64,000 bases of DNA from Tubulanus polymorphus (GCF_964204645.1 NC_134031.1:9734001-9798000), one strand, 5' to 3'; shown: positions 9,037-54,207, counted from the stretch's first letter. Translations and numbers: made by a program. Notes: generated by a model from the letters alone, not told the origin.

Positions 9037-9080
<44 letters not shown>
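8909..9080. repeat. (TG)n-(TA)n microsatellite replacing the deleted intein/pPolB 3' segment
   Basis: Dinucleotide runs join VRSNTS directly to DGIKTLPYG. Confidence 0.95.
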
Positions 9081-9083
<3 letters not shown>

Positions 9084-9960
9084 GTATTACTTCTAACTAT
9101 TCCATGAATATAGAATTCATCATTATTTTTTATTTTATTATATTTTATATACATATATTTTATATATTTTATTTTATTCACAAGTATTCTATAAACCGCT
9201 GATGATTTCATAACATGTATGAATTTAAATGTTTTATGTGAATAAAGTTCTTCACAATATTTCTTTATTCTTTCTAATCATTTCAAATCTTGATTGCATA
9301 AATACCAACAATATTTATTGCAATTAACATATTTATAAGAGAAAAGTGTTAAAAAACTAAGATCCGAGAAACAAATGGCTTGGGCTTAAGAATTTGGATT
9401 AAGATCTGCTGAATTTAAAAAAAAGAAAAAAGAAATATTAAATGAACCTACAATAGTGTTAATAATGTTAATGATTATTCACATAATTCTTCTAATGATA
9501 GAAATTTTAATACCTGCAGATCTATCTCCCATAAAAAATCCTTTAATGAAATATTCTTTTTCTTCTAATGTTTTAGGTCCTATATTAAAGATATTATTAA
9601 TCATTTCATCAAATGACATATGATTCATTCTTGGATAAAATCTTTTATGCAATAATTCATCTCCAATTTTTATATCAGTTGGTTTTATTTCATTACCATT
9701 TTTTCTAATTAAACTATGATCTTCTGTAACATCTACAAATCCTAATTTAGTTCTAACTCTATATATTCTTTTACTTGTTTTATGTCTAATTATATTTTTT
9801 AATTTTTTGTCCAAACATCTATTAATCCATTTCCTTGTATTAACTACTTTTCACCATATGAAATATAAAGTGCATTTTGTTTAATAAGTATTTCTGAAAT
9901 TCTTCTTATTAATATTTGGTTATTAAGTTTTATTAATATTGGGGTGTCAGCTGTTACAGA
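9080..9960 (-). other. Intein, second copy (N-terminal ~2/3, disrupted)
   Basis: SVTADTPIL block A, VTEDHSL block B, FIKGFFMGDRS LAGLIDADG motif; ~170-bp insert at ~9339-9510; 3' part deleted. Confidence 0.9.
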
Positions 9961-11074
9961 ATTGTGATACAATATTTCAATATTATCAACACCAAATTTA
10001 GGTTGTAATGTCGCACAATAAAACTTATACATTAATAATTTTGATAATTCTTAAACTGTTGCCGCAATGAAAACTGGTTTACTGAATTACATTTTGGTAC
10101 GTTCCATTTTAACTGCTGCTAAATTTATATCAAATCTTTTATTTCCTTGATGTTTTGGATTACTTTGTAAATGTCTAATTCGTTCACCATTAGTAACTAA
10201 TTCTATGTCACATCTATTTCTAATATTTTCACAAGTTTTACCATAGAATGCATCATTCATTAACTTGAAGAAATCCTTTTCAAACTCAAATATTGCTATT
10301 GTGCGTTGTTTTGTATTGAATTCTATATATTTAGATAACCAGTTAGATTGTTTAACTTCAATTTATCTATGTACTTTTTTTAAGTATCATTCCCTGTTCT
10401 AAATAAAATTTTAAGATTTTATAATGTACTACATAATTATATTTATTTTCTTGTGTTAACATCAATTTTCAGTGGATCCCATTTTCTTAGGTTTTATTTT
10501 TTTCTGATACTCGCTTTATTCTTCATCAATTACTTTTTTATGGTCTGGGCAATATGGATAATTTTTAGATTAATGTTTTATTTCATTGAGATATTCTAAA
10601 TCAACTATAAAAAAATAACCAATTTCGGTTTTGTCTTTTAATATTTCAATTTTTGATGCCCAATCAATATTTTTATTTTCTTCATCACTAACATCTGTTA
10701 AATCAAAGCCACCATACGGTTGATATTGCATCATAGCCCAACCATAGGGATTATTAGCGTCTACATATATTAATTTGTAATCATCATTTGCTCTAAAATA
10801 TCTATCATCCATAATTCCAGATATTCCACCTCGAATAGCTTTTTCAAATATTAATAATATATCTACTTCTCTAATTAATTCAAGTGTTATATTTGTAAAT
10901 TTTAAACCGCATTGCCAAGTTAAACCTGGACTAGAATAACAATAACACGGATCAATTTCATAATGTTTTAAGTTTTTACAATAATAACATTTTGTTGCTT
11001 TTTTCAAAATTGATTTCATCAAATATTGTCATTCAATTTCATAATATGTGTTTAATTTTTCCATGAATACATTC

Positions 11075-28099: not shown

Positions 28100-28708
28100 T
28101 TAAATAAATTCATATTTAAATGGGTGTTGTAATCTAAATAGTAATTTTGATCTTTTAATATTTTTCAACTTATCCATATATTCATTATGTAAATCATGTG
28201 GAATAATATCATTTTCCTCAAGTGCATTTTTCATCGATTTTCTATCTTTATTGTAGAATAAAACTAGAAATCTAATGGTTTCTCTAAAGTCTTTAACAAT
28301 TGAATTATATTTTTGATTTAAAACCCATGTTGTTATCCCAAAATGTCTGCCAGAAAAAGCTTAATAGCATAACTCACTTTCTCTAACTTTTGAATCATGT
28401 AAATTTGCGCAATCATCTATGATAAATAATGTATTTGATCCTTTATAAATATCAATTGCTATTTTTATACAATTATCTAAATTTTCTTTTACTGTTTTAG
28501 GATCTAATATAATAAATTTATTATTTCTAGTAATATTTCTATCATAAGTTTGATTAAATTCATAAGTTGGACAAAATAATACTATATTATCAAAATAGTT
28601 TTCATAAACAGTTTCTAATAAATTTAATATAAAATAAGTTTTTCCACAATTTGTTACACCAGAAATTAACATATTATGAGGTTCAAATATAAATAATTCC
28701 TTATTCAT
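28100..28708 (-). pseudogene. A32-like packaging ATPase (one premature stop at 28361)
   Basis: GVTNCGKT, FIIDD, then AFSGRHFGITTWVLNQ in the same frame. Confidence 0.9.
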
Positions 28709-28717: not shown

Positions 28718-29740
28718 TTTAATCTTACTCGATAATATCCATTCATTAAATTTATCTGGCCATCCAACCCATTTTACTAAAGAATATTTTTTTCTTTTAA
28801 CAGTTTTTGTTTTTAATACTTTTTTCAATTTTATATTCTTGTTCTAGATTTTCAGTAGTTAAACTCAATTCTTCTTCATAAAAATACCCATCAACTTCTT
28901 CACCATTTAAATCTTCTAATCTATAGACATAAGGTTTTGTTGTTATTACCTTTTTTATTTTATATATTTCCCTAGTAAAATTTCGATCGTATCCTTTGTC
29001 AAATATCTTTTTATACTTAGAAATTCTAACATTTTGACCAACTTTAAATTTAGGTTCACCAAAATCATCTACAAGAAATGCTCCATATAAATTACTCCAA
29101 ACAATTTCAGCATTTTCAGGTTTTCTAGCATCAATAGGTTTCATTCCAATAGAAGAATGATAAGAATTATTATATCCTTCTATCAATTTTGGTAAAACAT
29201 CAATCCATTTAAAAGTATTATTTGCTGTAAAATATTTCCACATTCTTGTTCTTAATGTTCTATTAAATCGTTCAACAACTGCTGGTTTTTTATCCGATTT
29301 TGTTGAAAAATATTTAATATTATGATTATCTAAGAGTTCATGAACAAGTGAATTATCAAACTCTTTTCCATCATCAAATTGTATTTTTTCTGGCTTTAGT
29401 TTATCATCCGAAAGACATTTTCTTAAAACATTTGATGTTTGTACAGCATCTTTTCTATAAAGTGGGAAACTCCATACATAACGACTAAAAATATCAATTA
29501 TATTCAATAACCACCAATAATCATCATTATCTTTCTTAACATTTTTTCATATCAATTAAATCTCCTTGCCACTGTTGATCTACATAACTTACCATAGTTT
29601 TACGAGTTTTATGTGTTTTTATGTGTTTTAATTTTTTTCTAACATAAATTCATTTATATCTTTATATTTTACTAAATTTTGTGGGATTATCTTATCTAAT
29701 TTATCTTGTTTTACTTTACTCCATATAATTTTAACTTTAT
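28718..29740 (-). pseudogene. rve integrase plus chromodomain (frameshifted, 5' deleted)
   Basis: QQWQGDLID, IDIFSRY, QFDDGKEF, VERFNRTL, LVKWVGWPDKFNEW. Confidence 0.92.
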
Positions 29741-29744: not shown

Positions 29745-30992
29745 CTAATATTGAATACTATCTAATTGTGAATTTACAATATTTAATTGTGCGTCAGATA
29801 TAATATAAATGTGCATTTTAAAATTTTTGATTCCTTTATTCTTTGTTATGAATAATTGTATTCCATCTTTAGTGTTCTGTAGTTTTTTTCCAGAACCATG
29901 TAATGAATTATCCTCTGTTGTTCTAAAATCTAACCATAATGCATATTTATTACCGGTATAATAATCAATTTGATTAATATTACAATTTTCAGATGATTTT
30001 ACTTTTTCATTCATAAAATGTTTTCTAATTTCTGGCCATTGATCAATCATTCTCATTCCTTGACAAAATATTTTATTTGCTATTCCTTCGATAGTTATTT
30101 CTACTTTTGTTATTTCAGGATTATAATAATTATCAACATTTATCGCACCATAAGTATATGTTGCAATGGTAAAAAATATTGATATACCTTTAATAGATCT
30201 TCTTGGGAAGTTAATATTCTCATTAATAATTTCATCATTTGCATTAATAGTTACAGTTTTAAATTTATCAATATAATCATATAATAATGAAAATCCTTGA
30301 TTGTATTTAGTTTGAATTATACTTGAAATATTTTCATCAGTTACTGTATCATATTCTAAACATATATTCGATAATTTATAACCCATATCTTTAACAACGC
30401 TAGATAATACAATTTCATTTACAGGAGCAAATGTTATTTCGAATATAATATGTTCTTGAATTGCGTATTTATATAAAGGCGCATTATTATTTATCAATTC
30501 AAAATCTAATGGAATTTTATATTTGCTTCCATTAATCTTTTTTATTAAGTTATCTATAGCATTAGTTACTACTGCATTATTGGCTTCTGATCTTAGTTTA
30601 TTTTGGTTTTCTGATTGGATGCCTTGAAATATCATATTATTTCTATTTTCTTTAGTTAACCATAAATCTTTATAATGCATAAATAGATTATAATCATCTA
30701 ATGAGAAAACTGTTTCTGGACCAATCTTTATAGTTAATTTTTTAATCAAATATCTTCCAACATTATCGACAACATAATTATTATCATGACCAGTTACTTT
30801 TATATCAGCTGATAAATAAATACTATTTGGAACATAAAAAGTATTTTGTGTTAATCTAGGAATTCTAACATATAAAGTTTCATCGGGATTAATATTAGAA
30901 GGGTTATGAGTAATTATATGATGTGATCTTTCTGCTTTAATAGCATTAGATATTCTATGATTCTTAGAAGGATTGATATAACTCCCACTCAT
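29745..30992 (-). CDS. Putative double jelly-roll major capsid protein
   Basis: Intact 415-aa beta-rich ORF, the most conserved gene between paralogous elements; size and position fit a Polinton MCP. Confidence 0.75.
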   Translation of the reverse strand: MSGSYINPSKNHRISNAIKAERSHHIITHNPSNINPDETLYVRIPRLTQNTFYVPNSIYLSADIKVTGHDNNYVVDNVGRYLIKKLTIKIGPETVFSLDDYNLFMHYKDLWLTKENRNNMIFQGIQSENQNKLRSEANNAVVTNAIDNLIKKINGSKYKIPLDFELINNNAPLYKYAIQEHIIFEITFAPVNEIVLSSVVKDMGYKLSNICLEYDTVTDENISSIIQTKYNQGFSLLYDYIDKFKTVTINANDEIINENINFPRRSIKGISIFFTIATYTYGAINVDNYYNPEITKVEITIEGIANKIFCQGMRMIDQWPEIRKHFMNEKVKSSENCNINQIDYYTGNKYALWLDFRTTEDNSLHGSGKKLQNTKDGIQLFITKNKGIKNFKMHIYIISDAQLNIVNSQLDSIQY

Positions 30993-31012
30993 TTATTTAA
31001 CAAAAAAATTAA

Positions 31013-32474: not shown

Positions 32475-32490
32475 TTATATAATAAAAAAA

Positions 32491-33879: not shown

Positions 33880-33895
33880 TTATATAATTAAAAAA

Positions 33896-34330: not shown

Positions 34331-34349
34331 TTATTTAGAAAAAAAATTA

Positions 34350-34772: not shown

Positions 34773-34796
34773 TTATTTAGCAAAATAATTATGCAT

Positions 34797-35018: not shown

Positions 35019-35037
35019 TTATTTATCAAAAAAATTA

Positions 35038-35375
35038 CTATCTTCAAAATATTTAGTTATCTTAGTGATGATTATTTCAACATTTATTTCATTACTAGTT
35101 TCATTTGTACATATTTCAATTATTATTTTTTTAATATCATCGATGATAAAATCTTCATCTAATTCATAAAATCTTAAAGATTCTCTAATTAAATTAGTAA
35201 TCTTTTCTACATTTAAAGTTTCTTTATCTATTGTTTTTTCATACTTAAATGTTGCTTAATTAGAAAATACAATATTTTTGATTTGTGTAATTACATCATT
35301 AATGTTAAATTTCATTTCTTTCTCACGTTTAAAATCAAATCCAAAACATATACTCGGTCCAACAGTTATATTCAT
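35038..35375 (-). pseudogene. Small hypothetical gene (MNITVGPSMF..)
   Basis: TAAATG start, disrupted; paralog at 24733-25055. Confidence 0.55.
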
Positions 35376-35391
35376 TTATATAATGAAAAAA

Positions 35392-36180: not shown

Positions 36181-36248
36181 TATTTATAACATAAAAAAAT
36201 TACCGCTCATCACTAAAAATTGATTTTAATAAAATTTTTCCTAAATAA

Positions 36249-37362
36249 ATGGATGAGAAGATACCATGTGAAATTTGTGGTGAACTTCTAAGAAAAAGTA
36301 ATATGGCTCGACATATGAAAAAACATGATGAAAATTATAAACCCCCTAAACTAAACTGCCCAAAATGTAATAAATTATTCTCAAGAAATTATGTTAAAAA
36401 ACATTCAGAGAAGTGTAAAATTAATGGCGCAACGGCTAATGTTGATAGTAACGAAAGTAATAGTAATTCTGCTGAAGTTGAATCTGAAATTATTTGGAAA
36501 AGACCTTTCTTATTCTATGACAAGGATAATATAAAAGATCATTTCTGTAAGCCTTGTCGAATAAAATATAGCCCTGAAAATATAGAAGATTGGGAGAATC
36601 ATCAATTTCGTAAAGCACATATAGATAAAATTTCTAATAAATTTGAAACTGAATTCAATGAAAGAAAAAATAATTTATTAGAAAAAATAAAATATGAGAA
36701 AACGTTACCAGATAATAAAGAAACAGTTGAAAAGTTAGAAAAACAATATAATGAATTAACAAGAAAAACATATTATTGTAAATATTGTAAATTGATTATT
36801 ACAACAAGTAATTCAAATCTACATAATAGAACAATAAAACATAAAGAAAACGTAAGAAAATACCAAGAGCTTAATGAAGATCTATTACCAATAAATTATA
36901 AACGAAAATGTCCACAATGTAGTTATGCGGCATTAAGACAAGAAGGTACTGTGTTATTTTGTAATGAATGTGGATGGCAAAAGAATTTATGGAGTGAAGA
37001 AAAAACTAGAAATTTTCTCATAGATCCAAATTTAAATTATCTAGATGAAATTTTTAAAACATTTTCTATAGAAGATCATACACCAGAATATATGCAACGG
37101 CATGAAAAAATGAAAATAATAGAAAATAAAAATGGTGAAATAACTAAAAAAGATATTATAAAAACAATTATTCCATCAACATTTAACACAAAACAAAAGA
37201 AAATATATTTATATTTATTATTTAACGATTATTATGAAAAACCTAAATTAACAGAAGAAGATATGAAAAATATAAAAAAAATATTCAAACAAATGTTAAT
37301 GTATTATTTGGAAAATAGAATAACAGATTCAATAAATTATGAATTCTTTTTAAATAAGATTG
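36249..37362 (+). pseudogene. Multi-zinc-finger protein, interrupted by Gypsy (continues 47438-47652)
   Basis: Four C2H2/C2HC-like fingers plus CPQC..CNEC ribbon; frame continues KIVNYLNIDII after the LTR element is removed. Confidence 0.8.
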
Positions 37363-37708
37363 TGTGATAGAGTGAAAATTATTTACTGTAAGCTGGCGCC
37401 CCTCTATGGGTGTTCGTGGAATCACGGTTGACTTCCTGGAGGTGTTGTCAGTCTTTAGAATTCTGCCATATAGGCAGGATATTCTGTGATTTTGGAATAA
37501 AGTTTCTTGTACATATACAACGAAAACTTTATCTTATTTAGTCCGCAGTTCCTGGAGAGAAGAAACGGCTGGTCAATCGCCCCGACAGTTGGTGGTTGTG
37601 ATATGGTAGCAGTTCCCCCGTCAAACTAGTCCTGAAATCTTGGTTGCGGAGTGGGAGTCTCCACGAAATATCTTCGCCCAACGATCTGGAGGATCCCGCT
37701 CTGTGACA
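37363..37708 (+). repeat. 5' LTR (346 bp, internally deleted)
   Basis: TGTGATAG..TGTGACA; matches both ends of the 3' LTR. Confidence 0.95.
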
Positions 37709-37710
37709 TT

Positions 37711-37728
37711 TGGCGCCCGGTATGGGAC
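37711..37728 (+). promoter_or_regulatory. Primer binding site, tRNA-Lys-like
   Basis: TGGCGCCCGGTATGGGAC, 2 nt after the LTR, resembling the Lys PBS TGGCGCCCGAACAGGGAC. Confidence 0.75.
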
Positions 37729-38569
37729 CCGACGAGGAATGATTGCCGACGCCAACCAGCCAAAGAATATTATGATCTCCTGCGTCGTAAATCCGATCCT
37801 AAATTAAGCGACCTGAAGGGTTTTCGGGGATCAGCGTAGAAAAAAAAACAAAAACAAATTGTGAGTACGGGATAAATTGCGTGTTCGGGAGTTTCGATTG
37901 GAATGAAAATATTAAATATATATATCAGCTATACTGAATCGATATAAGCGCCACTCTAGAGTCGGTGGTGCATATTCGTTTGTGAATTGTGTTGTCCCGT
38001 GATAAATCTGTCGTATTGTTGTCACGTGTTGTACTGTGAACGTATTTGTGTGTTGAGTCAGTGGTTAAAATAAAAAAAAAAAAAACATCCGGAAAGGATT
38101 AGTGTTGGTGTTTCGTTTACATTTGGCATGATTGAAGAATTCATACACATTGGAATTGGATTGCCGTCATTTTACCCGTGATATAGTTCAGCTACGGAGA
38201 GTTTGATCTGTAAAAAAAAAACTATCATGGACATTAATTTTCTTTCGTTTCTTGGATTGAAATGATTAAAGAATAGATTTGATAATTCATAGATCTTAGT
38301 GCTGATTCTTAGTATTTGATTACCAAAGATATATTGAATCAATAAGTTGGCGGGTTAGTTAAATCAAAATTTGTTGGTAACTTGAATCATAATGTGTTAT
38401 TAACTACATTTTTTTTTTTTTGGTGGTAGTTCCGTTTTCTTTCTTTTGTTTTCGTATCTTGTGTGTTTGTCTTAATGTTTGTCTGTTGAAAGTGTTTTGT
38501 ATATGTTTATGTGAAATTCGTAATCATCATTAGTGAACGTTATAATTTGTCTGTGATTTCAGAAGTATT

Positions 38570-39963
38570 ATGGCGTTGCATGAGAGTTCTGTCTGGGTCG
38601 GTGGTTTATCTGGGGTTGAGGAACCGTTACAGTTCTGTCGGAATTATTTCCAAGAATGTGGAAAAATTATAGCCACCAGCTTAGGTCACGACGGGGTATT
38701 TTTAATTTTTGAGAGTTCCCGGGCTACGAGACGAGCAGTACGTGCAAACGGGTTGAATGTAAACCATTTGGGTGGCAATTTCACTATTCAGGTAAAAACG
38801 TTAGAGCCCGCCCAAGAGAGGTTTCTTAAGGAATTGAAGGAAAATACAGCCTGTGAGCTAGCATTAGACGATATGGTGAAAACTTTTAGTTCGATGCCCC
38901 CTCGGGTACAGAGTCGCCTAGTAGATAAGCTGGTGACTGAGAGCAAAGGGGCTTCGCCACAAATGAAATATGAACCGGATGGGTTTGGGGCGTCGTATCT
39001 CGAAAATAACAGACATGATCCTTTGATGACCCCCAAACAATCTCAAATACCGTTCTCGGTTGCGGCTGTCCCCCTTCAAAACACGCGTATTGGGCAATTC
39101 TCAGGAAATGATAATAAAGGTGAAATAACCTATGTACAGTGGAAACAAGAGGCTGTAGCTTTAGTTAGAGACGTGACAGTATCTGAAGCTGCTTGTTTGA
39201 GGGCGATGCGGTCTTCGTTACGCGGTAGTGCGCTTCGTGTACTGACAAATTTGTATCACAATGAGGAGATGCTTTCACCCCGGATCGTGCTCAACAAGAT
39301 GGATCTCATGTTCGGAGAGGTTTTGGGTGCCGAGGAAATGCTGGTTAAATTTCACTCAGTTCAGCAACAGGACGGGGAGTCGATAGCTGACTTTGCGTGT
39401 CGCCTGGAGGAAGTCGCTTCCAAAGTAAAATCAGCAGGGGAAGGGGATGTTAAATTACCGAGGATATGTTAAAAGGGCAATTTTGGCGAGGTATTACATC
39501 CACATCGCTAAAAATGGCCATACGTTTGTATAAAGAAAAAGAATTTACCTTCCAGAAAATTGTAACTATGGCTCGAAAGGTGGAGAGTGAGAATGGAATG
39601 GAAACGACTCGGGAGGAAAGGTGGTCACCCAGACGGAAGGGGAGACCAATTTCACATCAAGCAAATACTCACGTAACTTTGAAAGTAACAGAAAAGGATG
39701 ATCTTTCGGAGAAGCTGAGGGTTATGCTAGATAAGTTAACTCGGATGGAACGTGAAATGAACGACCATCGAAAACAATTAGAGCAGCTGACCTGGAAGCC
39801 TGGTCGGTGGCGCAGTGGACCACGGGATAGGCCACCAGTACCGTTGGAAGAGCGAATCTGCTATAATTGTGGAGAAAAGGGGCATTTAAGATACACCTGT
39901 CCTAAGCAGGGAAACGAATACAAGCCTGTCAGTGGAGGCGCTGCACAGGCGAAAAAACCATAA
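38570..39963 (+). pseudogene. gag: Gag (RRM-like N-terminus, PNMA-like capsid, CCHC knuckle), one frameshift near 39465
   Basis: FSG..YVQW..SLRGSAL, QQQDGESIADF, CYNCGEKGHLRYTC. Confidence 0.9.
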
Positions 39964-39972
39964 GTAGCCTCA
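39909..39972 (+). promoter_or_regulatory. -1 ribosomal frameshift signal (G GGA AAC plus stem/pseudoknot)
   Basis: Heptamer in gag frame; -1 frame open into the protease; stem GCCTGT/ACAGGC 8 nt downstream. Confidence 0.8.
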
Positions 39973-39980
39973 CTCAGCAA

Positions 39981-40605
39981 TTGATAGGGGCACCCAATGA
40001 GCATTTGATTACAGTAAATGGGGTCCCATGCAAAGCTCTATTAGACTCGGGGTCAATGGTTTCCACTGTATCGCGGAAATTTCTTCAAGATAATGTTTCG
40101 CCTGTACCGGTGGTTCCTATTTCAGATTTAATCCCTTCTTTACAGGTGAAAACTGTCTCCGGGGAAAATTTACCATTTGAAGGGTATACTGAATTGGATG
40201 TAGAAATTGATGGAGAGAGTATAGCAATTTTAGCTCTCGTAGTCCCTCCCACAGAATATCATGACAATGTGCCGGCATTAATTGGGACCAATGTTTTACG
40301 ACGTTTGCGGAACCAGTATTTGTATAGGGACAAAGGCTCTAATCCTTTGGTTCGAACCACGCAATCCTCTTTTGTTCCGCCCAATTCAGAAGTGACTCTT
40401 CATGGAATCGTCCGTAATTCAGCGATGGATAGTCTCGTGATGTCAGATGCCACCGATGTGAGGGTTCCAGGGAGCCTGACTATCATTCCTACCGTCGCCA
40501 ATCTTTCCGAGACTCGATGTTGCCGCGTAGCGATCAGAGTGCGGAATTCAAGCAGCAAGGGAGTAACGATTCCAAGTAAGTCTCAGTTGTGTCGGTTAAT
40601 TTGTG
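39981..40605 (+). pseudogene. pol: Pol 5' part: aspartic protease
   Basis: ALLDSGSMVS, LIGTNVL; cut by the DNA transposon. Confidence 0.92.
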
Positions 40606-41223
40606 CAGGGAAGTGTGATGAGATGGAATACGGACGCTATTGTGCAGCTCTTGTCGAATGTGCGTTGTAATTGCCCTAAAGCCGATAACGGTTCGTCGGC
40701 GAGCGCTTTGTTACGTAACGCGCCGATAAGCGATAACCAGCGAGATCGGGAATCTCCGTAATAATTCAGTTGTTTCCGAATATCGGTTTTTCATCCCATA
40801 ATAAACTTATATAAAGATTCCTCTGTAAACTGGTTAAACTCAACACCTGATTTCCCCTCATCAATTTTAGTCGATCAACTTGTATTCACAATTGTCTTAA
40901 ATTTAAGTGCCCCCTAGTTTGTCTCTTAACTGCTTCTCTTTAATCTGTTTTAGCGTGTAACTGTTTCTACGTTAATTTTCCTTTAGTTAGTATCATCTCT
41001 GATTACTTGAATTAGTCTCTTTGTCTCTGGATTGTATATATCTCTCATAATTTCTGTAGTATTCATTATTTCTGAAGATGACTATTAGGACATAGACGAA
41101 ACGTTGAATAAACTACTAACATTTTTGGACTTTTTCGTTATCATTGTGGGATTCTCTCTACATCGCTTCAGACGGATATAGTGTTTTATCAATCGTGATA
41201 TCGGTTCTTTCCGCTGTATTAAA

Positions 41224-41900
41224 ATGGCAACGGTTGTCAACGAAATTATAAATGATGAGGATTTTGACGATCTATTCTTTGATAGTGACGAATTGGTTCA
41301 GATCCATACGGAAATATTACGGGAATCCTCTGGATCAGGATCAACTAATTCGGCCGATTCTAGTGAGTGTTATTCCTTTTGAATCAATGAAATATCGGAA
41401 TAGTTTCTACCTAATTGCAGGCACTTTATTCTTTCCTTTTCTTTTTCATATAGGTACTTCTCAGGCTCAGCTGACCAGAGACTGCGATCTGAACACGAGA
41501 AAACACACATACAGGTATTTCTTACATTTATTTTTATAATCAATACAATCCTTTTAGGTTATAAAATAATAAACGAATACAGAAAATAATATATAAAGAT
41601 AATATAAAAAATCCAGATAAGTACATGTTAAAATAATAATCATTATTATTATTTTCGCAGGAACACTATATATTTGGAAAAGGCTATGACTGAAGTGATT
41701 AACCATCGAGTATTTAAATTCAGTTCAAATGGAATGGCAGCAGTACATAATGGAAAATCGATCGATAAAATTTTGACTACAAATACGTCGCCGTCCAGAC
41801 TTGGAATTAACCAGTGGTTTACAAAAATTCAAGATACATTATGTTCCGCCATTCACATAAGCACTGCGAAAGATTTGGATAAAATGTGGGCAAAGTTTCA
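41224..41900 (+). pseudogene. Three-exon truncated gene inside the transposon
   Basis: Exons 41224-41362, 41454-41514 and 41661 onward join in frame via GT-AG introns (MATVVNEII...DKMWAKFH). Confidence 0.6.
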
Positions 41901-42134
41901 TGTTGTGATAGTCACAGGGACAGTTTTTTTAACGTTTTTGTTCTTACGCCATTTTTGTAATTTGACACGACACATATTACAGATATATATCGGGTACTGT
42001 TCAGTATCATCATCAAAATCAATGTTGAACAACTCCTTCACATGGCTTTTGAAATTATTTTTATCGATAGGACGACGATCCGGAGGTTTCGCATTTTTTC
42101 CACACAATCGACAAAGATCCATGACTAAAAACAA
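41898..42134 (-). pseudogene. N-terminal Cys4 zinc domain of a probable transposase (RAG1 N-terminal/Chapa-like)
   Basis: LCRLCG...LFNIDFDDDTEQYPIYICNMC. Confidence 0.6.
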
Positions 42135-42833
42135 GAAAAGGTTAATTAAATGAGATTGCTGATGCTATTTAGGCAGCTTGGTTTATATGGGGGACAATAA
42201 TTTGTAGGCCTAATGTAAGCGTTATTAAGTAACATTATTATGTAGTAAATACACATTTTAAAGATCATACTTCGTGTATATGTTTGTGTCGTAACATAGC
42301 AACATGACGTCAGAAACGAAAGCTGCGCGAGTCTGGGCCGAAATATTTGATATCTTCAAGGCCCAAATAACGCTAAACCCGGAATCGGAACGAACTGGCA
42401 AAAACATATGTTTAACACATAAAAACAGACTTTAATCACAATATAAATACTTAATGTTCCGATTCCGGGTTTCGGAGATATAGAAGAATAAAAATACATA
42501 CCTTTTTGGACAAATTTTACGAGAAATTGTTGAATTTCAACCGATTTTCTAAAGAAAAATATGTGTATACACAGCCACTTCCACGTGGTTCAATGAACTG
42601 CAGTGCGCATGCGTAGTATCGATCGCAGAACATTTATCGGGCTAAAACTATTGCGGGTTGTTCTGCGACCGAATCAAAGTTGATGTTGACTGGTGTTCAG
42701 CTGGTAACACACACTCGATAAGCGTAGCTTACTGCTGTTGCGGTAACCTTTGATGTACGGGCTGAATTGAATAGCCTACATCCGGCAATTAAAAGCGTCC
42801 GTATTCCATCTCATCACACTTCCCTGATTTGTG

Positions 42834-45800
42834 TAAATGAAGTCGCAAACTGTGCTACTATTCCAGATGCAAGTGGGGTCAACGAAAAAAGCATCGATGA
42901 AGTCTCAGATGATGAGTTTCTAAAGAGTATCGATCTCACGGGTGTTCAAACGGAAGAGGAGGAAGGAATGCTCCGTGAACTTTTACTCAAATGGAAGAGG
43001 GTTTTTGCTGTCAAGGACTTGGATCTAGGGACGACTCAGGTTTACGAACATCGGATTCGTCTCACGGACGACACACCTATAAACCAGAGATATCGGCGTA
43101 TACCACCTGGAATGGTGAATGAAGTGCGGGAACATATCCGTTTAATGTTGCAGGCAGGGGTAATTCGCCACTCGGTTAGTCCATACTCAAGTCCGGTAGT
43201 TTTGGTCCGTAAAAAGAATGGGGAACTCCGTTTCTGCATCGACTACCGTGAACTTAATAAAAAGACCATACCCGATCGATACAGCCTGCCTCGTATCGAC
43301 GAAGTATTGAACAACCTCGCGGAATGCGATCATTTCACTGTGATCGACTTAAAATCGGGGTATTGGCAGCTTAAGATGGCCGAAAGAGATCGCGAAAAAA
43401 CGGCTTTCAATGCAGGACCAGGATTTGGATTCTACGAGTTCGAAAAAATGCCGTTCGGGCTTACCGGCGCGCCTGCATCGTTTCAACGGCTTATGGAACG
43501 AGTCCTTGGGGAATTAAATCTACGGACGTGTATTGTCTATATGGATGATATAATTGTATTCTCCAAAGGAGCGAAACAACACATCGAAAGGTTGGAGGAG
43601 GTATTCGCTTGCTTGGAGAGAGCTGGTTTGAAAGCTAAACCCTCTAAATGTGTCTTCATGAGACCCGAGGTTCTTTATTTGGGACACAAGATATCGAGTA
43701 GGGGGATAGAGACAGACCCTTCCAAGATTAGCACGATTCGCGAATGGAAACGACCGGAGACCGTGAGGGAAGTGCGGTCTTTTCTAGGATTCGCAGGGTA
43801 CTATCGGAGATTTGTACCTGATTTCTCTCGGAGTGCAAAACCTCTCACGGATCATTTGAAAGGAATCCCAAAGGATTGCGGTCGAAATAAAAAACTCGAC
43901 GAACGACTCGTATGGGGTGATAAAGAAGAGGCAGCATTCAATTCATTAAAAGAATCGTTGATGAATCCTCCTGTTTTAGGCTTCGCAGACTACTCACGTC
44001 CTTTCATACTTCGCACGGACGCTTCAACAACGGGTCTCGGAGCCGTTCTTTATCAAGAACAGAACGGTGAGCGCCGGGTTATCGGTTTCGCGAGTCGGTC
44101 TCTCAAGGAATCTGAGACACGATACCCGATACATAAGTTGGAGTTTCTCGCCCTCAAATGGGCCGTAACCGATGTGTTCCATGATTATTTATACGGGCAT
44201 TTCTGCACCGTGGAGACCGACAATAATCCTCTGACCCATGTTCTGCGAGCTGCGAAATTAGATGCCGTCAGTCACCGTTGGCTGCAGGCACTGTCGGTGT
44301 ACCAATTAGACATCGTCTATAAGCCAGGGAAGAGCATGAAAGATGCTGACATTCTTAGTCGTCGTGTGGAGGCTGAGGTAGTCCAAGCATTCTGCGCTTC
44401 AGCTCATGCAGAGTCCATCCCTCCGTTGAGGGATGACACAGGTATTGTATTTCCCGAAGGCGATCCCGTGACCTTGCAGAATTCTGACTCAGTACTCAGG
44501 AAAATAAAAACCTGCTTAGAGGAGAAAGTTAGATTCGTCCCTATGAATAGAGAGGAGCAGAAATATGTGAAGTATATGTCGTCACTAGCGTTAGAGGATG
44601 GGGTCATCGTGCGAAGGAAACAAGTCGACGGAAAGGAAGTGACTCAAGTGCTGATGCCACCAGATAAGAGGGATGAGATATTATTTCATGCGCACGATGC
44701 GCTCGGTCATATCGGTCGTGATAAAGTTTGGGGAATAATTAATTCCCGTTTCTTATGGCCTGGGATGTTTGCCGACGTCGAAAGATATCTGAAAGGTTGT
44801 CGCCGCTGCGCTGTGAATAAAAGTCAAGAACACCGTGCGCCTCTAGAGTCAATATTAACGACGGAACCCTTAGAAATGCTATGTATGGATTTTCTGAAGC
44901 TAGAGCCGGCATGTGGATTTGAAAATCTGCTGGTGCTCACTGACCATTTTTCGAAATTTTCAGTTGTGGTGGCCACGAAAAACCAACTAGCTAAAACGAC
45001 TGCCAAAGCTATTTACGACAATTTCATTTTGAGATATGGCATACCAATGAAATTACATAGCGATCAAGGACGAAATTTCGAAAGCCAGATAGTGAGAGAA
45101 TTGTGTCAGCTGCTTAAGATTGAAAAAAACCGCACGACCCCGTACCACCCTCAAGGGAACGGGTGTGTAGAGAAAATGAACGGAACTCTATTACGACGCT
45201 TGGCTTTACTTGAGCCACTTCAGAAAACCAAGTGGAAGGACTCTCTGCAGACGGTCGTTTGGCAGTACAACTGCACCCCGCATGCCACGACAGGGTTCTC
45301 GCCGTATCAGTTACTCTTTGGTAGAGAGCCTCGTTTACCTCTGGACAGCATTTTCGGAGTTGATAAATTGAGGTGTCGCACAAAGTTTGGAGAGCAGATA
45401 CAAGAGGAAATCGCCCATGCGTGGAAGACTGCTCGACAACGAATGGAGAGTGCTGCTGACAGGTCGGGATGGTATTACGACGCGAAGATTAGGGGTGGAG
45501 TCCTTCAACTCCAGGACTTGGTTTTGGTTAAAAACGTCGGTCCCTCATCGCAAGGTAAATTATCAGATCGCTGGTTGGATGAGGAATTCGTAGTTGTAGC
45601 CCGTCCAGATGATGATTTTCCTGTCTACACCGTCGAGAGTATGAAGACCGGGAAACGAAGAACTCTTCATCGCAATATGTTATATCCCCTGGCTTATCCC
45701 CTCCGAAAGACTATGGCATATGAAGAATCGGAGAAAGGCAAGAGGATTGGTCAGTCAGGTAAACGCAAGATCAGCGTTGGGTTTGGACAGGATTCGGATC

Positions 45801-46216
45801 GGTCGGATTCCGATGAGTCTTTCGATGGGATTGAGGAGATGGACCTTTTGGTAACTGTACCTGATGAAAAAGCAGAGACAATAGTCGTGGAGGCCGATGT
45901 GCCTATTCAACCAGAACAGTACCGGACTGAGATCGCGGAATCAGCGATGGACGTTCCTGTGGATGACGGCGTAGGAGCAGACAACTCTTCTAATGACGGA
46001 GTTGAAGAACAGCCGCCTCGTCGATCGACTCGATTACGTCAAGTACCTGCTCGTTTTGCGAACAGTGATTTTGTGTTATCAGGTGGAACGGTGAAGGAGA
46101 AAGTTCCAGATTGGCAGAGACGAGTCGAGTCCCTTATGGAAGTGGCTAGGGATAGCGCAATTACGTCGAATCCTTTACTTCTCTCGTCACTGATAAATTT
46201 GATTCAAAATGGTTGA
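42834..46216 (+). CDS. pol: Pol 3' part: RT, RNase H, integrase (open frame)
   Basis: MPFGL, YMDD, TDAS, TDNNPL, H..H..CRRC, MDF..HSDQG..EKMN. Confidence 0.97.
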
Positions 46217-46627
46217 TAACTAATAAAGAAATAAGGGTTTTAATGCACACGTTGTTATATGTTGAAGTTGTTTTATTCTAGATGTTTATCTCTTTAGTGA
46301 ATGATCTGAAAGAGATGAGAATTTCGTTAATGGAACGTTCGTCTTTTTTAAAAAAAAAAGGAAAAAAGCGGAGGGGCTTGTTGAAAAAATGACCATGTCT
46401 TTTGATGCGTGCTCAAGGCTTCATTCGTCTAGGGTAAAAATGTTGGAAATTTACTAATATGGGATGAATTGAAATTATCTCGTTTGGCGGATAAAGATTC
46501 GTTAAGGATGGGTCTTGTATATTGATTTTTGACTCTCATGCAGTGCTTCGGGTGTTAATTTAGTGCAGTTTCATATTGACAGGGTCTGGAAACTTGTTTT
46601 TCTTGTTTTTCGAAAGTAAGGTGAGAG

Positions 46628-47433
46628 TGTGATAGAGTGAAAATTATTGACTGTAAGCTGGCGCCCCTCTATGGGTGTTCGTGGAATCACGGTTGACTTC
46701 CTGGAGGTGTTGTCAGTCTTTAGAATTCTGCCATATAGGCAGGATATTCTGTGATTTTGGAATAAAGTTTCTTGTACATATACAACGAAAACTTTATCTT
46801 ATTTAGGTAAGTTTGTCTTACGTAGATATAATATTATGCTGTTTTTATAGGCCTTGTCATTGAAATTAGATGTGTTATATGGAATTGTTGAAATTCCTTT
46901 ATGAAATCAAATTTCCCGCCATTTTTGTATGCTAATTAACTAGGTTAGAAAGTGGTCTTATCTTCGGTCTTCTATCAGAATATCGTAATGTAAATATTTA
47001 ATGTTTGAAAATTGAGATATAAATTGGTCGAAAAAGCTGATTATTAAGTGTGATATATATAATATGTAAGTTACTCTATTGTTTTGTGGATAATTTAATG
47101 AAGATGTTGGGAGATATCGTTCTCCTTGGGTGGAGATAATATGTATATAAATTAATAGATATTGAGATGTGGTCAGTCTTTAGAATTCTGCCATATAGGC
47201 AGGATATTCTGTGATTTTGGAATAAAGTTTCTTGTACATATACAACGAAAACTTTATCTTATTTAGTCCGCAGTTCCTGGAGAGAAGAAACGGCTGGTCA
47301 ATCGCCCCGACAGTTGGTGGTTGTGATATGGTAGCAGTTCCCCCGTCAAACTAGTCCTGAAATCTTGGTTGCGGAGTGGGAGTCTCCACGAAATATCTTC
47401 GCCCAACGATCTGGAGGATCCCGCTCTGTGACA
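46628..47433 (+). repeat. 3' LTR (806 bp) with internal 95-bp direct repeats
   Basis: Preceded by purine tract GAAAGTAAGGTGAGAG; repeats at 46712-46806 and 47172-47266. Confidence 0.95.
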
Positions 47434-47649
47434 ATTGTAAATTATTTAAACATAGATATTATAATTCCATTTGATGAATTAACAAACAAAAAGAAACAGA
47501 GAGCGAGATGAAATGTGGTACAAGATAGAACTTTATTTAAATGAGAAAAATGAAATGGAAGAAGAACCTAAACAAATTATACAAGAACAATTAAATGAAA
47601 ATGAAGAAGCCAATAGTGATTTCGAGTATGATGATATTGATTTTATGTT

Positions 47650-50600
47650 TTAATGGCCATAAGGTAATGTTTTTATACCATCATCTAAAATATGCCTTTT
47701 ATCATCAAATGGATTTAAACTAGTTTTTTCAACTTCATTAATGTACATCTCGTGATCTTCTGATCTTAAACAATTCATTTTGTGTTTCATTACAATTGAG
47801 TTATATAAACACTTTATATAATCTTGAAATTCTATATGTTTATCAACCACATGTTTTGTTATTCCTTTTAACTTTCTAGCTTCATGATCTTTTGTTCTAT
47901 AACTATACATTTTACTTCTTATCCCAACAAATTCAATCATTTCATCACCCCCTAATTCATCTTTAAACTTACCAGGAATCTTTTTATTATCATTGCTAAA
48001 TAGTTCATGATCTTTGGGATAATTGCTAAAATCAAAATGATGTTTTAATGTTTTTAAGTCTTTTGTTATATCATTTGTCTTGTGATCAGTGATTTTTAGT
48101 ATGTAGGCGTCCGTATTTTTGGCTATTAATGGAAATCCACAGTTAAATGTACCATCTTCAGTTGATAAATCATAAACATAGTCAGTTGGGTTATATATTT
48201 CAAATAAATCTTTAACTTCTTCTGTTAATTCTTTTTCTACATGCCTTAAATTAAAACAATTTGGTTTAGATTTAATTAATTCTATATTCATATTAAATCC
48301 TAATGAACTGCATAATATATTTAATCCTGATATAGCAACTTTTCCTTTTTGAGCTAAAGATATTGTTTTGAAACTTTTTGAACCATCTGCTGCATAGAAT
48401 CCAATGAAGAACCATTTTCTTAAATTATCTCTTGCATTTAATACATAATCTGGAACTATCTTTTCTTTTGTTGAAGTATTACTTTTCACTATTGCATGAA
48501 TATAGAATTCATCATTATATTTTGTAGCAAAATCTTTAGGATTATTTACAAATATTCTATAAACCGCGGATGATTTCATATGATCCATGATTCTAAATGT
48601 TTTATGTGAATAAACTTCTTCGCAGAATTTCTTTATTCTTTCTAATAATTTCAAATCTTGATTGCGTAAATACCAACGATATTGAGTGCGATTAACATAC
48701 ACCAACACCAACAACAACAACATCATTTATACACACCTGCTGAACCATCTCCCATGAAAAATCTTTTGATAAAATATTCTTTTTCTTCTAATGTTTCAGG
48801 TTCTATGTTATAAATATTATCAATTATTTCATCAAATGACATATGATTCATTCTTTGGAAAAATCTTTTATGTAATAATTCATCTCCAATTTTTATATCA
48901 GTTGGTTTTATTTCATCACCATTTCGTTTAATTAAACTATGATCTTCTGTAACATCTAAAAACCCTAATTTAGTTCTAACTCTATAGATTTTCTTATTTG
49001 TTTTATGCCTAATAATATTCTTTAATTTTTTCCATCCATTTCTTGTCCAAACATCCATTAATCCATTTATTTGTATTAATTCTTTTTCACCATATGAAAT
49101 ATAACATTCATTTTGTTTTGGAATTATTTCTGAAATTCTTCTTATCAATATTTTATCATTACATTTTAATAATATTGGGGTATCAGCTGTTACAGAATCA
49201 AAATATAATATTTCAATATGCTTTTCCCCAAAAAGTGGTTGTAAAAAATTATAAAAAAAATCATACATTAATAATTTTGATACTTCTAAAACAGTTGAAC
49301 CAATGAATATAGGTTTATTAAATTTCATTGACGTTCTTTTTAATTTAACTGCTGTTAAATAATCTTCAAATCTTTTATTTCCTAAATGTCTAGGACTTGA
49401 TTGTAAATGTCTTAATCTTTCAGAATTATTTACTAATTCAATATCATTTCTATTTCTAATATTTTCACATGTTTTACCATAAAAACTATTATTCATTAAT
49501 TTGAAGAAATCTTTTTCAAAATCTGTTTTTGATATTGCTCTCTGTTGAGTATTAAAATCTATATATTTTTCTAACCACTTCGATTGATTAAATTCACTTT
49601 CTTTAATATCATTCCTTGTTTTAGATAAAATTTTAACATTCTATAATGAACAATATAATTGTATCTATTATTTGAGTAAGTATTAATTTTTCTGTAAAAA
49701 CATGATCTTTCGGTTTTATTTTTTTCTGGTATTCACTTAAATAACTATCATCTGCGGTTAAATGTTCTGGGCAATAAGGTAAGTTTCTTGTTTTAAACTT
49801 TATATTTTCAGGATATTCTAAATCAACTACAAAGAAATAACCAATTGGTGCTTCATCTTCTAAACTCATAATTGCACTTTCCCAATTAGTTTTATCATCA
49901 TTTTCAACTTCTGTTAATATAAATTTTTATATGGTTGAGGTTGCATCATTGCCCAACCATATAAATTATTGGCGTCAATATATAATAATTTATATTCATC
50001 ATTTGCTTTAAAATACCTATCTCCCATAACACCACTAATTCCACCTCTTATTGATTTTTCAAATAATAAAACCATGTCTGGTTCTTTTAATAAATCTAAT
50101 TCTACATTTGTATATTTTAAACCACATTGCCAGGTTAAACCAGGACTAGAGTAGCAATAACAAGGATTAACATTAAAATGATTCAAATTAACTTCTCTAA
50201 ATTTTTCAAATATGTCAGCCAATATCATAACATCTGATTTTAAATATAAATCAACTAATTCGCCATGATTTTTCATCTTAAAATGGTTCCAAATATTTAA
50301 TGTTCTATTAAACACTTCGTCTTTCACATACTCCTCTTTTAATTGATCATAAAATTGATCTTTTAATAATTCTGTTACATTAAAATCATTGTGTTTTATA
50401 AAATGAATATGGAATTGCGCCTTTATATCTCAATAATTTAAAATCTTGGTCATGTGGATAATAATATCGAGTTATAACAAAATCATTATCAACTAAACTT
50501 TTTGATAAATTATCTAATGAACTTGCTAGAAATCTATAAGAATCTAAAAATCTAATGCAACCAAATTGAAATGAAATATAATTTTCAGATGTTTTAGCTA

Positions 50601-52728
50601 ATAGTTTAAAATCATATTTTCGTACATTTACACCATTCATAGCATTATATTCTTCTATTTCTTGATTAATTGCGCCCAATTTCCTTGATAATTGTTTTAT
50701 AAATAGATGGGTATCATAACCTGATAAATTATGAAATAATATTGGTACGAAATTTACTTTTTTAGCTTGTAAATTACAATCTTCATGAGCAGCTCCACGA
50801 TATTTTGAATTTAAATGATCGTGATCTCTAACTTTTTTATCAAATGAATAAAAACGTTTTTCACAATAACAACAATGAGTTGCATTATTAAAATCAATTT
50901 CATCTTCTTTTGTCATAACTATTCTTTTATTTTTGTTTAATAATTTTGCAAAATCACTTTCTAATTCAATCATTTTATCACAAAAATCATTAACTACATT
51001 TTCACCTCTAAAAGAAATATATTGACTTTCATATAATTCGGGATAATTTGATTTGATGTAAATTCCATAAGCAGCAGCTCTTTGATGAACTTTTTTAATT
51101 GTATTTATAATTAGTGGGTCTTGTATTGTGTCTTCATTTAATTCATTTCCTTTATCCATTGATTTTAATAATTGCTTTTTGTTATATATTTCTTTTCTAT
51201 CTTGATCAGTTAATTCTTTATTCAACGATTCAAAATCCCCATAAATTACAAATGGAACAATATTCTTAAATTTATGATTAGTAAATTTCAATTTATAATC
51301 TTTTTCTGTTGGCATTATTAATTTACAAAAATCTTTATTATCACATAATTTTTTATGTTTTAATAATGTATTCTCAGTCATAAATTTAGATAAACATTTT
51401 CTACATAGATAAATTTTACAATGATCACTTTCTGTTCTAAAGAATAAATCAATTTGTTTTGACCACATATAATGTTCATTTTCATCTTTTTTTGTAATAT
51501 AACAAATCTATAGCATTTTCATCATCATAATATTCTGTTAAATATAAAGCTTCTAATGTATAATCTTTAATATTTTCACCTTTTGTCTTTGGTAATTGCA
51601 TTAATTCGAATACATTTATTTTTAGATTATTAACTTTTTCTATTTTAGGAATCATTTTTATAGTTACTGGATATTGATCAATTTTATATAATGTTTCATA
51701 TTTCCGGTAATTTGTTATTCTAAAACTATGCGTCATATCTTCTGTTGGGTGTAAACAACTAATAATTGACCATAGAAAACATTTATTATCTTCATTTTGA
51801 ACATTCATTACTGCTTTTGTTGTAAATGGTAATATAATATAAGATGATGCTTTAATATCCTTTTCTGTTGTAAAGTTTGAATCATTTTTAAACATTTTAT
51901 TACTTTTTGATGTTTTATTTCTTTTTGTATTATAAACATTTAAATCTAAATATATAATTTCATTCAATGTTAAGCCAGAACCCTCAAAATATCTTTCTTC
52001 AATATGACGTTTAAATTCATTAAATATTTTTTCTAACTTCTCTTTTATTTGTGTTTTTGAAATTATTTCTTCAGAGTGTGTTTGAATATTATAATTCATT
52101 TTTTCTTCTGACTTTATAAAACTTACTTTCCCAGAGATACTAATTTTTGGATATTCAACATCTGTTATCAAATCTAGTATTTTTTCTATTATTTCTTTAA
52201 ATTTACTATAATCTTCTATTGTTGTTCCTTTAAGGAATCTAAATATAATAGCTGCAGGACCAATTTTACTACGTAATGTTTCTAATATTTCAATTGTATC
52301 TTTTATTTCTAGTGAATCAATATAATTTCTAACATTTTCCATGCAAGGTTTATTTGAAATGGATTTAGTTTTTGAAGTTGGTTTTAGTTTACTTTTTGAG
52401 GTTTATCATCAAAATAATCTTCTCCTAAAACATTATTACTCAAATTTTGATGGTGTTTTTGTGATTCGAGATGTCTATTATAATTCCTTTTTACTATAAA
52501 TTCATTACAAACTTCACATTTTATTTCATCCACATTCATATTTTCTAATCGTTCTTTTCTTTCATTGGAATTTTCTGGGGTTTCAAAATCTATAACATTT
52601 TTTATATGATTTGAAGATTTTTCATGTTTAGATTTATTAGATTTATCGATGTATTTTTTACAATATTGGCAATAATATTGATTTTTATTAACATTATTGT
52701 TTTCTGTCTGGTACTCACTCTCTCCCAT
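47650..52728 (-). pseudogene. Protein-primed family B DNA polymerase (pPolB) with ZnFs, EndoVII-like domain and intein; several frameshifts
   Basis: ExoI YGDFES, CCYC..RDHDH..RGAAH..CN, ExoII FHNLSGYD, ExoIII YLKSDV, A YIDANNLYG, B KLMNNSFYGK, C YFD|TDA, KMYSY, PFDDKR. Confidence 0.96.
48115..49196 (-). other. Intein with LAGLIDADG homing endonuclease (352 aa after removing a 26-nt insert)
   Basis: Block A SVTADTPIL, B VTEDHSL, C FFMGDGS, E FFIGFYAADGS, F YVYDLSTEDGTF, G LIAKN followed by T. Confidence 0.95.
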
Positions 52729-53091: not shown

Positions 53092-53576
53092 TTAACACGC
53101 TAGAATCCTTTTCATAATCTCATTTTCTTTTGTTTCTTCTCTTTTAAATCTTAAGTATTCATCTAAATTACAACCATATGCAACTGTATGAATTCCATCA
53201 TCTAAAATATATCTTTTATCATCAAATGGGTTTAGACTTATCTTTTCTATCTCTTCAATAAACATTTCATGATCTTCAGATCTTAAACATCTCATCTTGT
53301 GTTTTCTAACTTCTTCATTGAATATACAATTGATGTAATCTTTGAAATGAATATTCTTTTCAACAACGCTTTTGGTAATTCCTTTTAACTTTTTAGCTTC
53401 GTGTTCTTCAGTTTTATAACTTTACATTTTAGATCTAATACAAATTCTATCATTTCTTCACCACCTAATTCATCCTTAAACTTCCCAGGAACTTTATTAT
53501 TATCATTGCTAAACAATTCATGATCTTTAGGATAATTACTGAAATCAAAATGATGTTTTAAATCATCTGTTAACAC
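53092..53576 (-). pseudogene. pPolB C-terminus of the outer Polinton (5' truncated)
   Basis: HFDFSNYP..PGKFKDELGG, SLNPFDDKRYIL. Confidence 0.9.
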
Positions 53577-53724
53577 ATTATTATTCGAAAATGGAATTAT
53601 TAAATTCGTGGAATCAGTTGTAAAGCTGAAAAAAGAAATACGGTTATGATTGGGCCAGGATTAAGACAAAGCAATAAGTAACCTGGCAGACTAGGTTGAG
53701 GCAAATGTATGATTCATCAGTGAA

Positions 53725-53888
53725 ACACTGACCGAGGCTACAATATTGTAACCTAGGTCGGTTGACTTGCGCGGATTTATCTGCATACACTGACCGAGGC
53801 TACAATATTGTAACCTAGGTCGGTTGACTTGTGCGGATTTATCTGCATACACTGACCGAGGCTACAATATTGTAACCTAGGTCGGTTT
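53725..53888. repeat. 62-bp tandem repeat, ~2.6 copies
   Basis: ACACTGACCGAGGCTACAATATTGTAACCTAGGTCGGTT units with internal palindrome. Confidence 0.9.
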
Positions 53889-54207
53889 ACTGCATTATAT
53901 TTGCAGTATTCACTAATCCAAGATTAAGATCAGTCAGTTAACTTAATCAGTTTTTGAAGTTATTGCTGGTCCGATATCAGTCGGTTGATTTGTAGTTTTG
54001 ACTAACGAGGAATCCAAAAGTGTTTCAGTCAAACGTCTCCTATCATTGATGAATGACTTGAACAGTTAGGAATGTACATCGTTCACATTCCAAATTAACG
54101 GTTTAAAAAAAGTTTAAGTGAAAGCCTTTTACTTATATTGCGCAATTGCCATGATTGATACGAAAACGTTTCTAGAATCGGATGACAATTTATATAGAAT
54201 TGGAGTC

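Follow-up and report, generated by a model that had tools for sequence, protein, structure and literature searches.

The window, by which we mean the whole 64-kb stretch of DNA that was analysed, is a nest of decayed Polinton-like elements with a GC content of ~20–26%. A polymerase gene and the elements around it were placed as follows:

47650..52728, minus strand: protein-primed family B DNA polymerase (pPolB) of the endonuclease VII (HNH) insertion type, in several frames (PF03175; eight segments against the unbroken pPolB P0001; motifs Exo, A and B placed)
53173..53618, minus strand: further fragment of a pPolB C-terminal region, which stops short of motif C (70–71% to the C-extein)
28797..29546, minus strand: retroviral-like integrase (rve; PF00665, 32.9 bits, cut-off 32.6)
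28361..28708, minus strand: packaging ATPase of A32 type, partial (PF04665, E 2e-7, above cut-off)
29745..30992, minus strand: candidate double jelly-roll major capsid protein of 415 residues, of the same Polinton family (an Atlas lead)
37362..47437, plus strand: Ty3/gypsy LTR retrotransposon inserted in the Polinton just beyond the polymerase (RT, RNase H and integrase; PNMA-type gag; LTR repeats; 4-base target duplication)
9080..10974, minus strand: another pPolB copy, in a more advanced state of decay, that carries the same intein (at ~9960–9080, cut off by microsatellites)

The polymerase matched PF03175 above the cut-off (E 4e-8), its endonuclease VII domain (PF02945) stayed below it (E 0.005), and it is 63–79% identical to P0145–P0147. 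The capsid candidate has Atlas feature scores of 0.97–0.98 with capsid-bearing clusters, at family shares of only 10–24% and a low recognition value; it had no Pfam match, and its single-sequence fold reached a pLDDT of 32. The gypsy element lies between the polymerase and the integrase/ATPase/capsid block, and the linkage of the polymerase to integrase and ATPase across 27–37 kb is read from gene order. In raw reads filed under the same species label (run X5, of which ~12% was read), 191 reads diverge from the window at 47434, and beyond that point they resemble the stretch that precedes 37362. This indicates that other copies exist without the gypsy element and that the polymerase and the block on the left of that element belong together; read depth over the adjacent gypsy end was 4–25. 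A search for terminal inverted repeats and a 6-base target duplication gave no inverted match between the likely ends of this nested and decayed cluster. The initial annotation had spoken of an animal-type Polinton polymerase, and the Polinton part of that reading is borne out by PF03175, the rve integrase and the A32 ATPase, a gene content that supports a Polinton as the host of the polymerase.

Several other features of the nest were recorded. A block of Polinton virion genes is present in two copies (20079–25855 and 29737–36202, 83–93% alike), and a third, inverted and partial block at 15038–17702 includes an integrase tail that bears a chromodomain. Just upstream of polymerase-like genes lie long, imperfect palindromes and a tandem repeat of 62 bases (2293–2444, 13547–13698, 17701–17822 and 53725–53891), which may be origins or the ends of elements. 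A small Cys-rich frame (41898–42164) between the protease and RT regions of the gypsy element has a zf-AD match (E 3e-7) and is probably a nested DNA-transposon fragment.

The minus-strand stretch 49640–47650 corresponds, in its translated frames, to the end of the DNA polymerase in two open pieces. An insert of 1,082 bases (49196–48115, minus strand) divides motif C of the protein-primed enzyme as YFD|TDA, and its parts are:

49197..49205, minus strand: N-extein junction, first half of motif C (YFD; frame ...EILYFD), where P0145–P0147 have an uninterrupted YFDTDS
48726..49196, minus strand: intein piece 1, with Ser1, blocks A and B and endonuclease motif 1 (TIGR01445; 68% to the P0001 intein)
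From 49196, minus strand: SVTADTP, intein start with Ser1
48950–48939, minus strand: TEDH, block B
48761–48744, minus strand: FFMGDG, endonuclease motif 1
48115..48725, minus strand: intein piece 2, with endonuclease motif 2, the block F Asp and block G ending in Lys-Asn (LAGLIDADG_3; P0001; P0420)
48399–48382, minus strand: FYAADG, endonuclease motif 2
48177–48160, minus strand: VYDLST, block F
Ending at 48115, minus strand: AKN, intein terminus
47650..48114, minus strand: C-extein from the +1 Thr (TDAY, 48114–48103) up to the polymerase stop codon (73–79% to P0145–P0147)
48700..48730 (approximate): frame break in the endonuclease domain, at a GT-rich simple repeat (frames; read depth)

The window intein has Ser1, the block B TxxH, the block F Asp, a terminal Asn, a +1 Thr and two LAGLIDADG motifs, so that both the intein splitting catalytic motif C and the complete set of splicing blocks, as the initial annotation had them, could be placed residue by residue and agree with pPolB relatives that have the same junctions. 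Piece 1 scored 34.1 bits against TIGR01445 intein_Nterm (cut-off 24.5, E 4e-8), and pieces 1 and 2 are 68% and 58% identical to the intein of P0001; given this score and these matches, the intein identity of the insert is not a matter of chance. Pfam matches of the separate pieces were weak and below cut-offs (Intein_splicing E 0.014, LAGLIDADG_3 E 0.003). Piece 2 is 76% identical to P0420, the two pieces are 42% and 34% identical to the mimivirus PolB intein, and the block B residues T84, E85, D86 and H87 are invariant across 38 aligned intein rows. The insertion point is uninterrupted in the homologues P0145–P0147, P0137, P0139 and P0241–P0246, the first three of which read YFDTDS and are 71–79% identical to the exteins that flank the insert. 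With a GC content of 25% against 21% and 27% for the exteins, the insert is intermediate and uninformative on origin. At the level of sequence, these comparisons confirm the insert as a real intein of a known mechanistic class at a known site (pol-c, between Asp and Thr-Asp); the pol-c site YGD|TDS is, as had been proposed, the same as D|TD here, following its definition in the text available of PMC549080.

The copy in the window is itself most likely inactive, judging from breaks in both intein and polymerase. The insert is not a single open frame and does not read continuously with its exteins, unlike the inteins of P0001, P0002 and P0131–P0133; raw-read depth (run X5) falls to 22–24 per direction at 48655–48711, against 52–141 elsewhere in the insert; endonuclease motif 1 carries a non-conservative substitution relative to all five unbroken relatives; and the polymerase aligns to P0001 only as separate segments. 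Decayed in this way, the copy is a relic of an intein family, not a working element, and of the self-splicing homing element first proposed for this locus the family is real and the activity of this copy is not upheld. Between the two window copies the intein pieces are 89% and 88% alike, and the N-exteins 76%.

Both copies are interrupted within ~10 bases of one spot just past endonuclease motif 1 (48700–48735 and 9352–9512): in the first the interruption is the simple repeat, in the second it is ~160 bases that match 6469–6631 (91%), part of another Polinton gene. The record P0421 likewise begins near this spot, which may be a hot spot for breaks that are repaired from a template. The second polymerase copy also contains a 973-base tandem duplication, 99.9% identical, at 11075–13020.

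A search with intein piece 1 returned 378 proteins among 638 candidates, the top two being pPolBs (P0001, 68%; P0002, 54%); the other matches, in the best 120 of the 378, were nearly all RNA-primed PolBs, plus three topoisomerases. Searching with P0001 added P0131, P0132 and P0133, and searching with piece 2 added P0420, P0421 and P0422. The same intein, at the same site D|TD, was present in five unbroken pPolB cluster representatives (P0001, P0002, P0131, P0132 and P0133; inteins of 337–354 residues), and in the broken or partial records P0156/L052, P0420, P0421 and P0422. LAGLIDADG_3 (PF14528) was above its cut-off in all five unbroken relatives, and both endonuclease motifs retain their Asp in all five. 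Intein_splicing (PF14890) passed in one of the five and TIGR01445 in two, and the mimivirus intein itself scores right at the cut-off. Intact pPolB alleles (the five unbroken relatives) and intein-free ones (P0145–P0147 and six members of the P0132 cluster) were both recovered. Presence in several pPolB lineages supports the view that the pPolB intein was not a single event. Four of the unbroken relatives (P0001, P0002, P0131 and P0133) come from metagenome collections, on contigs of 5–13 kb, and may represent free viruses or protist elements.

Other searches gave fewer pPolBs. A pattern built on the C-terminal motif of the intein hit 57 loci, of which 49 matched a giant-virus PolB reference, seven were fragments with no extein match listed and one was a pPolB (L052), and the motif was on this count rejected as specific to pPolBs; 13 of 15 viral contigs found with this pattern bear GVMAG names. 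Locus scans of viral contigs gave three weak pPolB loci with a window piece and none with P0001, P0132 or P0002. The best 150 matches of a profile search over 50% representatives were almost only RNA-primed PolBs and topoisomerases, a search in which intein-free representatives may hide pPolB members. All Atlas matches for the intein were below 0.9 and serve as leads only.

Modelled from the 38-row alignment, the P0001 intein reached a pLDDT of 86 and a pTM of 0.87. Its best solved matches in Foldseek were the TliVMA intein (E 2e-17), PI-PkoII, PI-PfuI, PI-SceI and I-DmoI (rmsd 3.3–3.5 to the last), and its best viral model matches were giant-virus polymerases. The model predicts a Hint plus LAGLIDADG fold, for this unbroken relative rather than for the window copy.

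The penultimate residue of the window intein is Lys, not His, which the initial annotation had taken as a departure from the usual ending. Among RNA-primed PolB motif-C inteins Lys is the commonest penultimate residue (186 of 308 rows, against 106 with His, redundant rows included) and the mimivirus PolB intein also ends in Lys-Asn, so that Lys cannot be called unusual in this family. In the pPolB motif-C rows His prevails (10 of 12, with one Lys and one Ser). These counts suggest that a penultimate His is not obligatory in this motif-C allele family.

To place the intein among its relatives, we compared two trees. In a FastTree tree of 203 rows (198 full-length inteins, left from 290 after removal of those 70% alike, plus five fragments), nine pPolB or fragment rows formed one group (support 99). 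An IQ-TREE subset of 66 rows under LG+G4 (39 from the neighbouring clade, 10 random ones and outgroups) was rooted on inteins from a different PolB site. It recovered the nine pPolB rows as a single clade (100/99), which falls within a larger group (97/96; 53 rows) to which mimivirus belongs. Neither tree includes P0421 or the second window copy. P0326, a compositionally odd sequence with a long branch from a 5.4-kb contig, was sister to the pPolB clade (99/96), and the fork carrying this clade is open at the base. In both trees the pPolB clade has RNA-primed PolB inteins on either side, and these outnumber the pPolB ones among parsed motif-C rows (308 vs 12); of the best 150 profile matches, a single fragment (P0378) fell in with the pPolB clade. 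Forcing the clade to a basal position cost 21 log units (p-AU 0.048, under a simple model with three fragment rows left out).

The relatives are giant-virus-like by Pfam (PF00136), by name (P0100, mimivirus) and by contig label (13 of 15 GVMAG). They include P0311, which has a C4 zinc finger, and a eukaryotic polymerase delta may be among them. Closest kin are inteins of the same PolB site, and the few topoisomerase II inteins that also score group apart. A phage or prokaryote donor was rejected: a phage collection gave one weak match (27%) and prokaryote genomes gave none, in searches sensitive to close relatives only and seeded with these inteins, so that distant cellular inteins are thinly sampled. 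Among the inteins sampled, the closest kin are giant-virus-type PolB inteins rather than cellular or phage ones. The trees support a kinship of the pPolB inteins with giant-virus PolB motif-C inteins, and a transfer from a giant-virus-type RNA-primed PolB into a pPolB is likely but borderline: of the proposed crossing from an NCLDV-type PolB, the kinship stands through the group shared with mimivirus, and the direction hangs on the AU value.

Signs of homing were sought in the exteins. On a tree of 27 extein rows (intein and flanks dropped; the single window gene contributes two rows, as separate pieces), intein presence needs nine changes, at least five of them forced by starred branches, in counts that do not tell gain from loss, and presence is no more clustered than with shuffled labels. 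The most distant carrier is P0002, whose N-terminal 1,050 residues cannot be aligned to P0001 and whose extein branch is 4.5 long. It is a different polymerase class, with a strong PF03175 match, no endonuclease VII match and what we take to be a VSR-like motif, and despite this distant polymerase its intein is nested among the other pPolB inteins (100/91).

Of the 136 members of the P0132 cluster, 15 were listed, on contigs that range from 57 kb to 1 Mb; seven of these carry the intein, six span the site without it and two are fragments, with exteins 94–99% identical whether or not the intein is present. In the interval from -10 to +50, which was picked after the alignment had been inspected, 10 of the 60 positions carry fixed differences between intein-bearing and empty alleles; none of the 1,131 positions elsewhere does. 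Because the seven members with the intein are near copies of one another, a single event may account for the tract. The flanks of intein-bearing P0132 look like those of the more distant intein-bearing P0156 and P0422, not like those of its own empty sisters, and the six empty members show three different motif-C sequences. Such a pattern is the trace expected from co-conversion of flanks during homing, or from escape from homing; the tract could instead reflect loss by conversion. In run X5, most of the insert has a depth of 52–141 per direction, against 150–389 for the majority of extein bins, and the four joints listed comprise 77 reads that pass over the insert; together these indicate that both allele types coexist under one species label. 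From the patchy extein tree, the nesting of P0002, the flank tract, an intein closer than its extein and the coexisting alleles, we infer that the family probably homes.

The host is likely an animal, a reading we draw from the company the elements keep: a PNMA-type gypsy gag (E 5e-14), the zf-AD domain (E 3e-7), long CA microsatellites and what are presumably LINE- and Penelope-like fragments at 59–61 kb, which had no Pfam match. Whole-genome reads under a single species label also cover the intein family deeply. The 64-kb window showed neither a host gene nor telomeric repeats that would hint at the host. Of the animal germline placement first proposed, the linkage of intein and Polinton holds, and the animal host is suggested by neighbouring elements only.

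We are confident in reading the locus as a decayed LAGLIDADG intein in motif C of a Polinton pPolB, with predicted splicing and homing, a likely single acquisition from a giant-virus-type PolB and likely later spread in what are likely animals. From motifs and fold, an unbroken precursor would be translated and Ser1, aided by the block B Thr and His, would form an ester; the +1 Thr would take this over, the terminal Asn would cyclise, and the exteins would be joined with the Asp-Thr-Asp of motif C restored. Only exact splicing would then yield a working polymerase, and an element that lost its intein by a sloppy deletion would not survive. Once released, the intein is predicted to cleave motif C in the DNA of an intein-free Polinton copy that shares its nucleus or is met in a co-infection; repair templated on the copy with the intein would then insert it together with some flanking bases. 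As the site is the catalytic Asp motif common to both polymerases, an endonuclease from an RNA-primed PolB would have had a target in the protein-primed one. With somewhat less assurance, though we lean towards it, we propose that a homing intein clade crossed from giant viruses to Polintons, jumped from one deep pPolB class to another and is still spreading among animal germline copies, with the intein-free motif-C variants as escape alleles.

Against such spread stands the idea of one ancient entry into pPolB followed by vertical inheritance and many losses, with no recent homing. It would account for the pPolB inteins forming one clade and for the many decaying copies, and the change counts are blind to gain and loss; yet the intein is more alike than the extein between the two window copies, the very distant polymerase of P0002 carries a nested intein, the endonuclease Asp kept in all five unbroken relatives is not expected of pure drift, and allele-type differences are confined beside the site, where P0132 flanks look like those of P0156 and P0422. 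We regard purely vertical descent as improbable. The direction of transfer bears on a different alternative, in which transfer ran in reverse or from an older common source and the giant-virus motif-C inteins are either the sister group or the recipients of those in pPolBs. An AU value of only 0.048 and a fork open at its base leave it some room, but the RNA-primed PolB inteins far exceed the pPolB ones in number and diversity and flank the pPolB clade on both sides in both trees, and we consider this alternative unlikely.

The intein might also be real and mobile in a host that is not an animal (a protist, a fungus-like organism or a symbiont), to which we give a similarly small chance. The PNMA-type gag, zf-AD, long CA microsatellites and presumed LINE/Penelope-like fragments fit an invertebrate genome, and the depth of the family in reads of one species label speaks against such a host as well; in its favour are a window without a host gene and the giant-virus inteins known from algal and labyrinthulid nuclear scaffolds in the main text of PMC10710043. 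That an assembly chimera or contamination joined a giant-virus intein to a Polinton polymerase is scarcely credible: among the reads and contigs listed none spans the whole stretch, but raw reads cover all 30 bins, the window has a second intein-bearing copy, and unbroken natural proteins from several sources share the same junctions, independent evidence by which a chimera is refuted. The preferred reading remains a Polinton intein that probably homes.

The closest known system is the mimivirus PolB intein (pol-c or position III; P0100), described in the available text of Ogata et al. 2005 (PMC549080), where the pol-c site is reported for archaea and mimivirus. It shares the D|TD motif C site, Ser1, the block B Thr and His, two LAGLIDADG motifs, the Lys-Asn end, the +1 Thr and a length of ~350 residues. 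Mimivirus and other Nucleocytoviricota PolB inteins have RNA-primed hosts, whereas the window intein sits in the protein-primed polymerase of an integrating Polinton; the pPolB inteins form a clade of their own apart from these, with many target copies within one nuclear genome. Archaeal PolB inteins (PI-PkoII, 2cw7; the Nanoarchaeum split Pol intein NEQ068) and TliVMA have the Hint plus LAGLIDADG layout in common with it but differ in their cellular archaeal hosts and in an identity of 14–19% in the fold matches.

A nuclease domain within a Polinton pPolB has precedents. HNH and VSR insertions were described by Jeong et al. 2023 (PMC10748475), and one sentence of Krupovic et al. 2024 (PMC11071308) suggests that such nuclease insertions stem from intein invasions; the passages of both papers on these insertions name no Hint domain or splicing residues. 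The window polymerase also has an endonuclease VII-like insertion (below cut-off), and the full intein at the catalytic motif is separate from this HNH insertion. Viral polymerase inteins on nuclear scaffolds, with viruses as carriers as here, were reported in the main text of Gallot-Lavallee et al. 2023 (PMC10710043), for endogenous giant-virus polymerases of Klebsormidium, Tetrabaena and a labyrinthulid, alongside Anaeramoeba inteins, but in non-animal hosts.

In the literature within reach, with InBase, Repbase and most subscription papers outside it, we found no intein in a Polinton, Maverick, adintovirus or protein-primed polymerase, in line with the novelty that the initial annotation had left open to a search. 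"Intein" and "LAGLIDADG" have zero occurrences in the main text and supplement of PMC10748475, "intein" has none in the text and supplement of PMC8502044, and "Polinton", "Maverick", "metazoa" and "animal" have none in the main text of PMC10710043; for this last paper the negative covers the main text and two supplements, and its SI appendix and two datasets may bear on novelty. The parts available of PMC12220804, PMC3671162, PMC13768754 and PMC5718144 mention inteins only in general. A survey (PMC5784728) states in its available text that inteins are absent from metazoan genomes, with a count of zero in its supplement, and lists viral inteins only from large DNA viruses. What we describe is, on sequence grounds, a known class of intein at a known site, in a type of host gene and probably a kingdom of hosts for which we found none described.

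If the reading holds, the pPolB inteins would be true inteins in metazoan nuclear DNA and an exception to this stated absence, a selfish element preying on another selfish element. Their clade would document that giant viruses and Polintons exchanged DNA inside a shared cell, as did two deep pPolB classes. One genome with many near-identical copies with and without the intein would let homing, co-conversion and escape be read from sequence alone, and would make testable the long-standing question of why inteins fail in animals. The family also offers inteins evolved in eukaryotic, probably animal, cells.

Two further groups of relatives were noted. A cluster of 55 members on long contigs (P0422–P0436) has frames that hold little beyond the intein, with ~10 residues before and 4–7 after it, and these are possibly inteins detached from the polymerase in non-autonomous elements. 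Related inteins also occur in type II topoisomerases at D|TDG and at a second PolB site, N|SxYG (P0017, P0048, P0065, P0379, P0399, P0405 and P0419), which suggests that the family moves between sites with like motifs.
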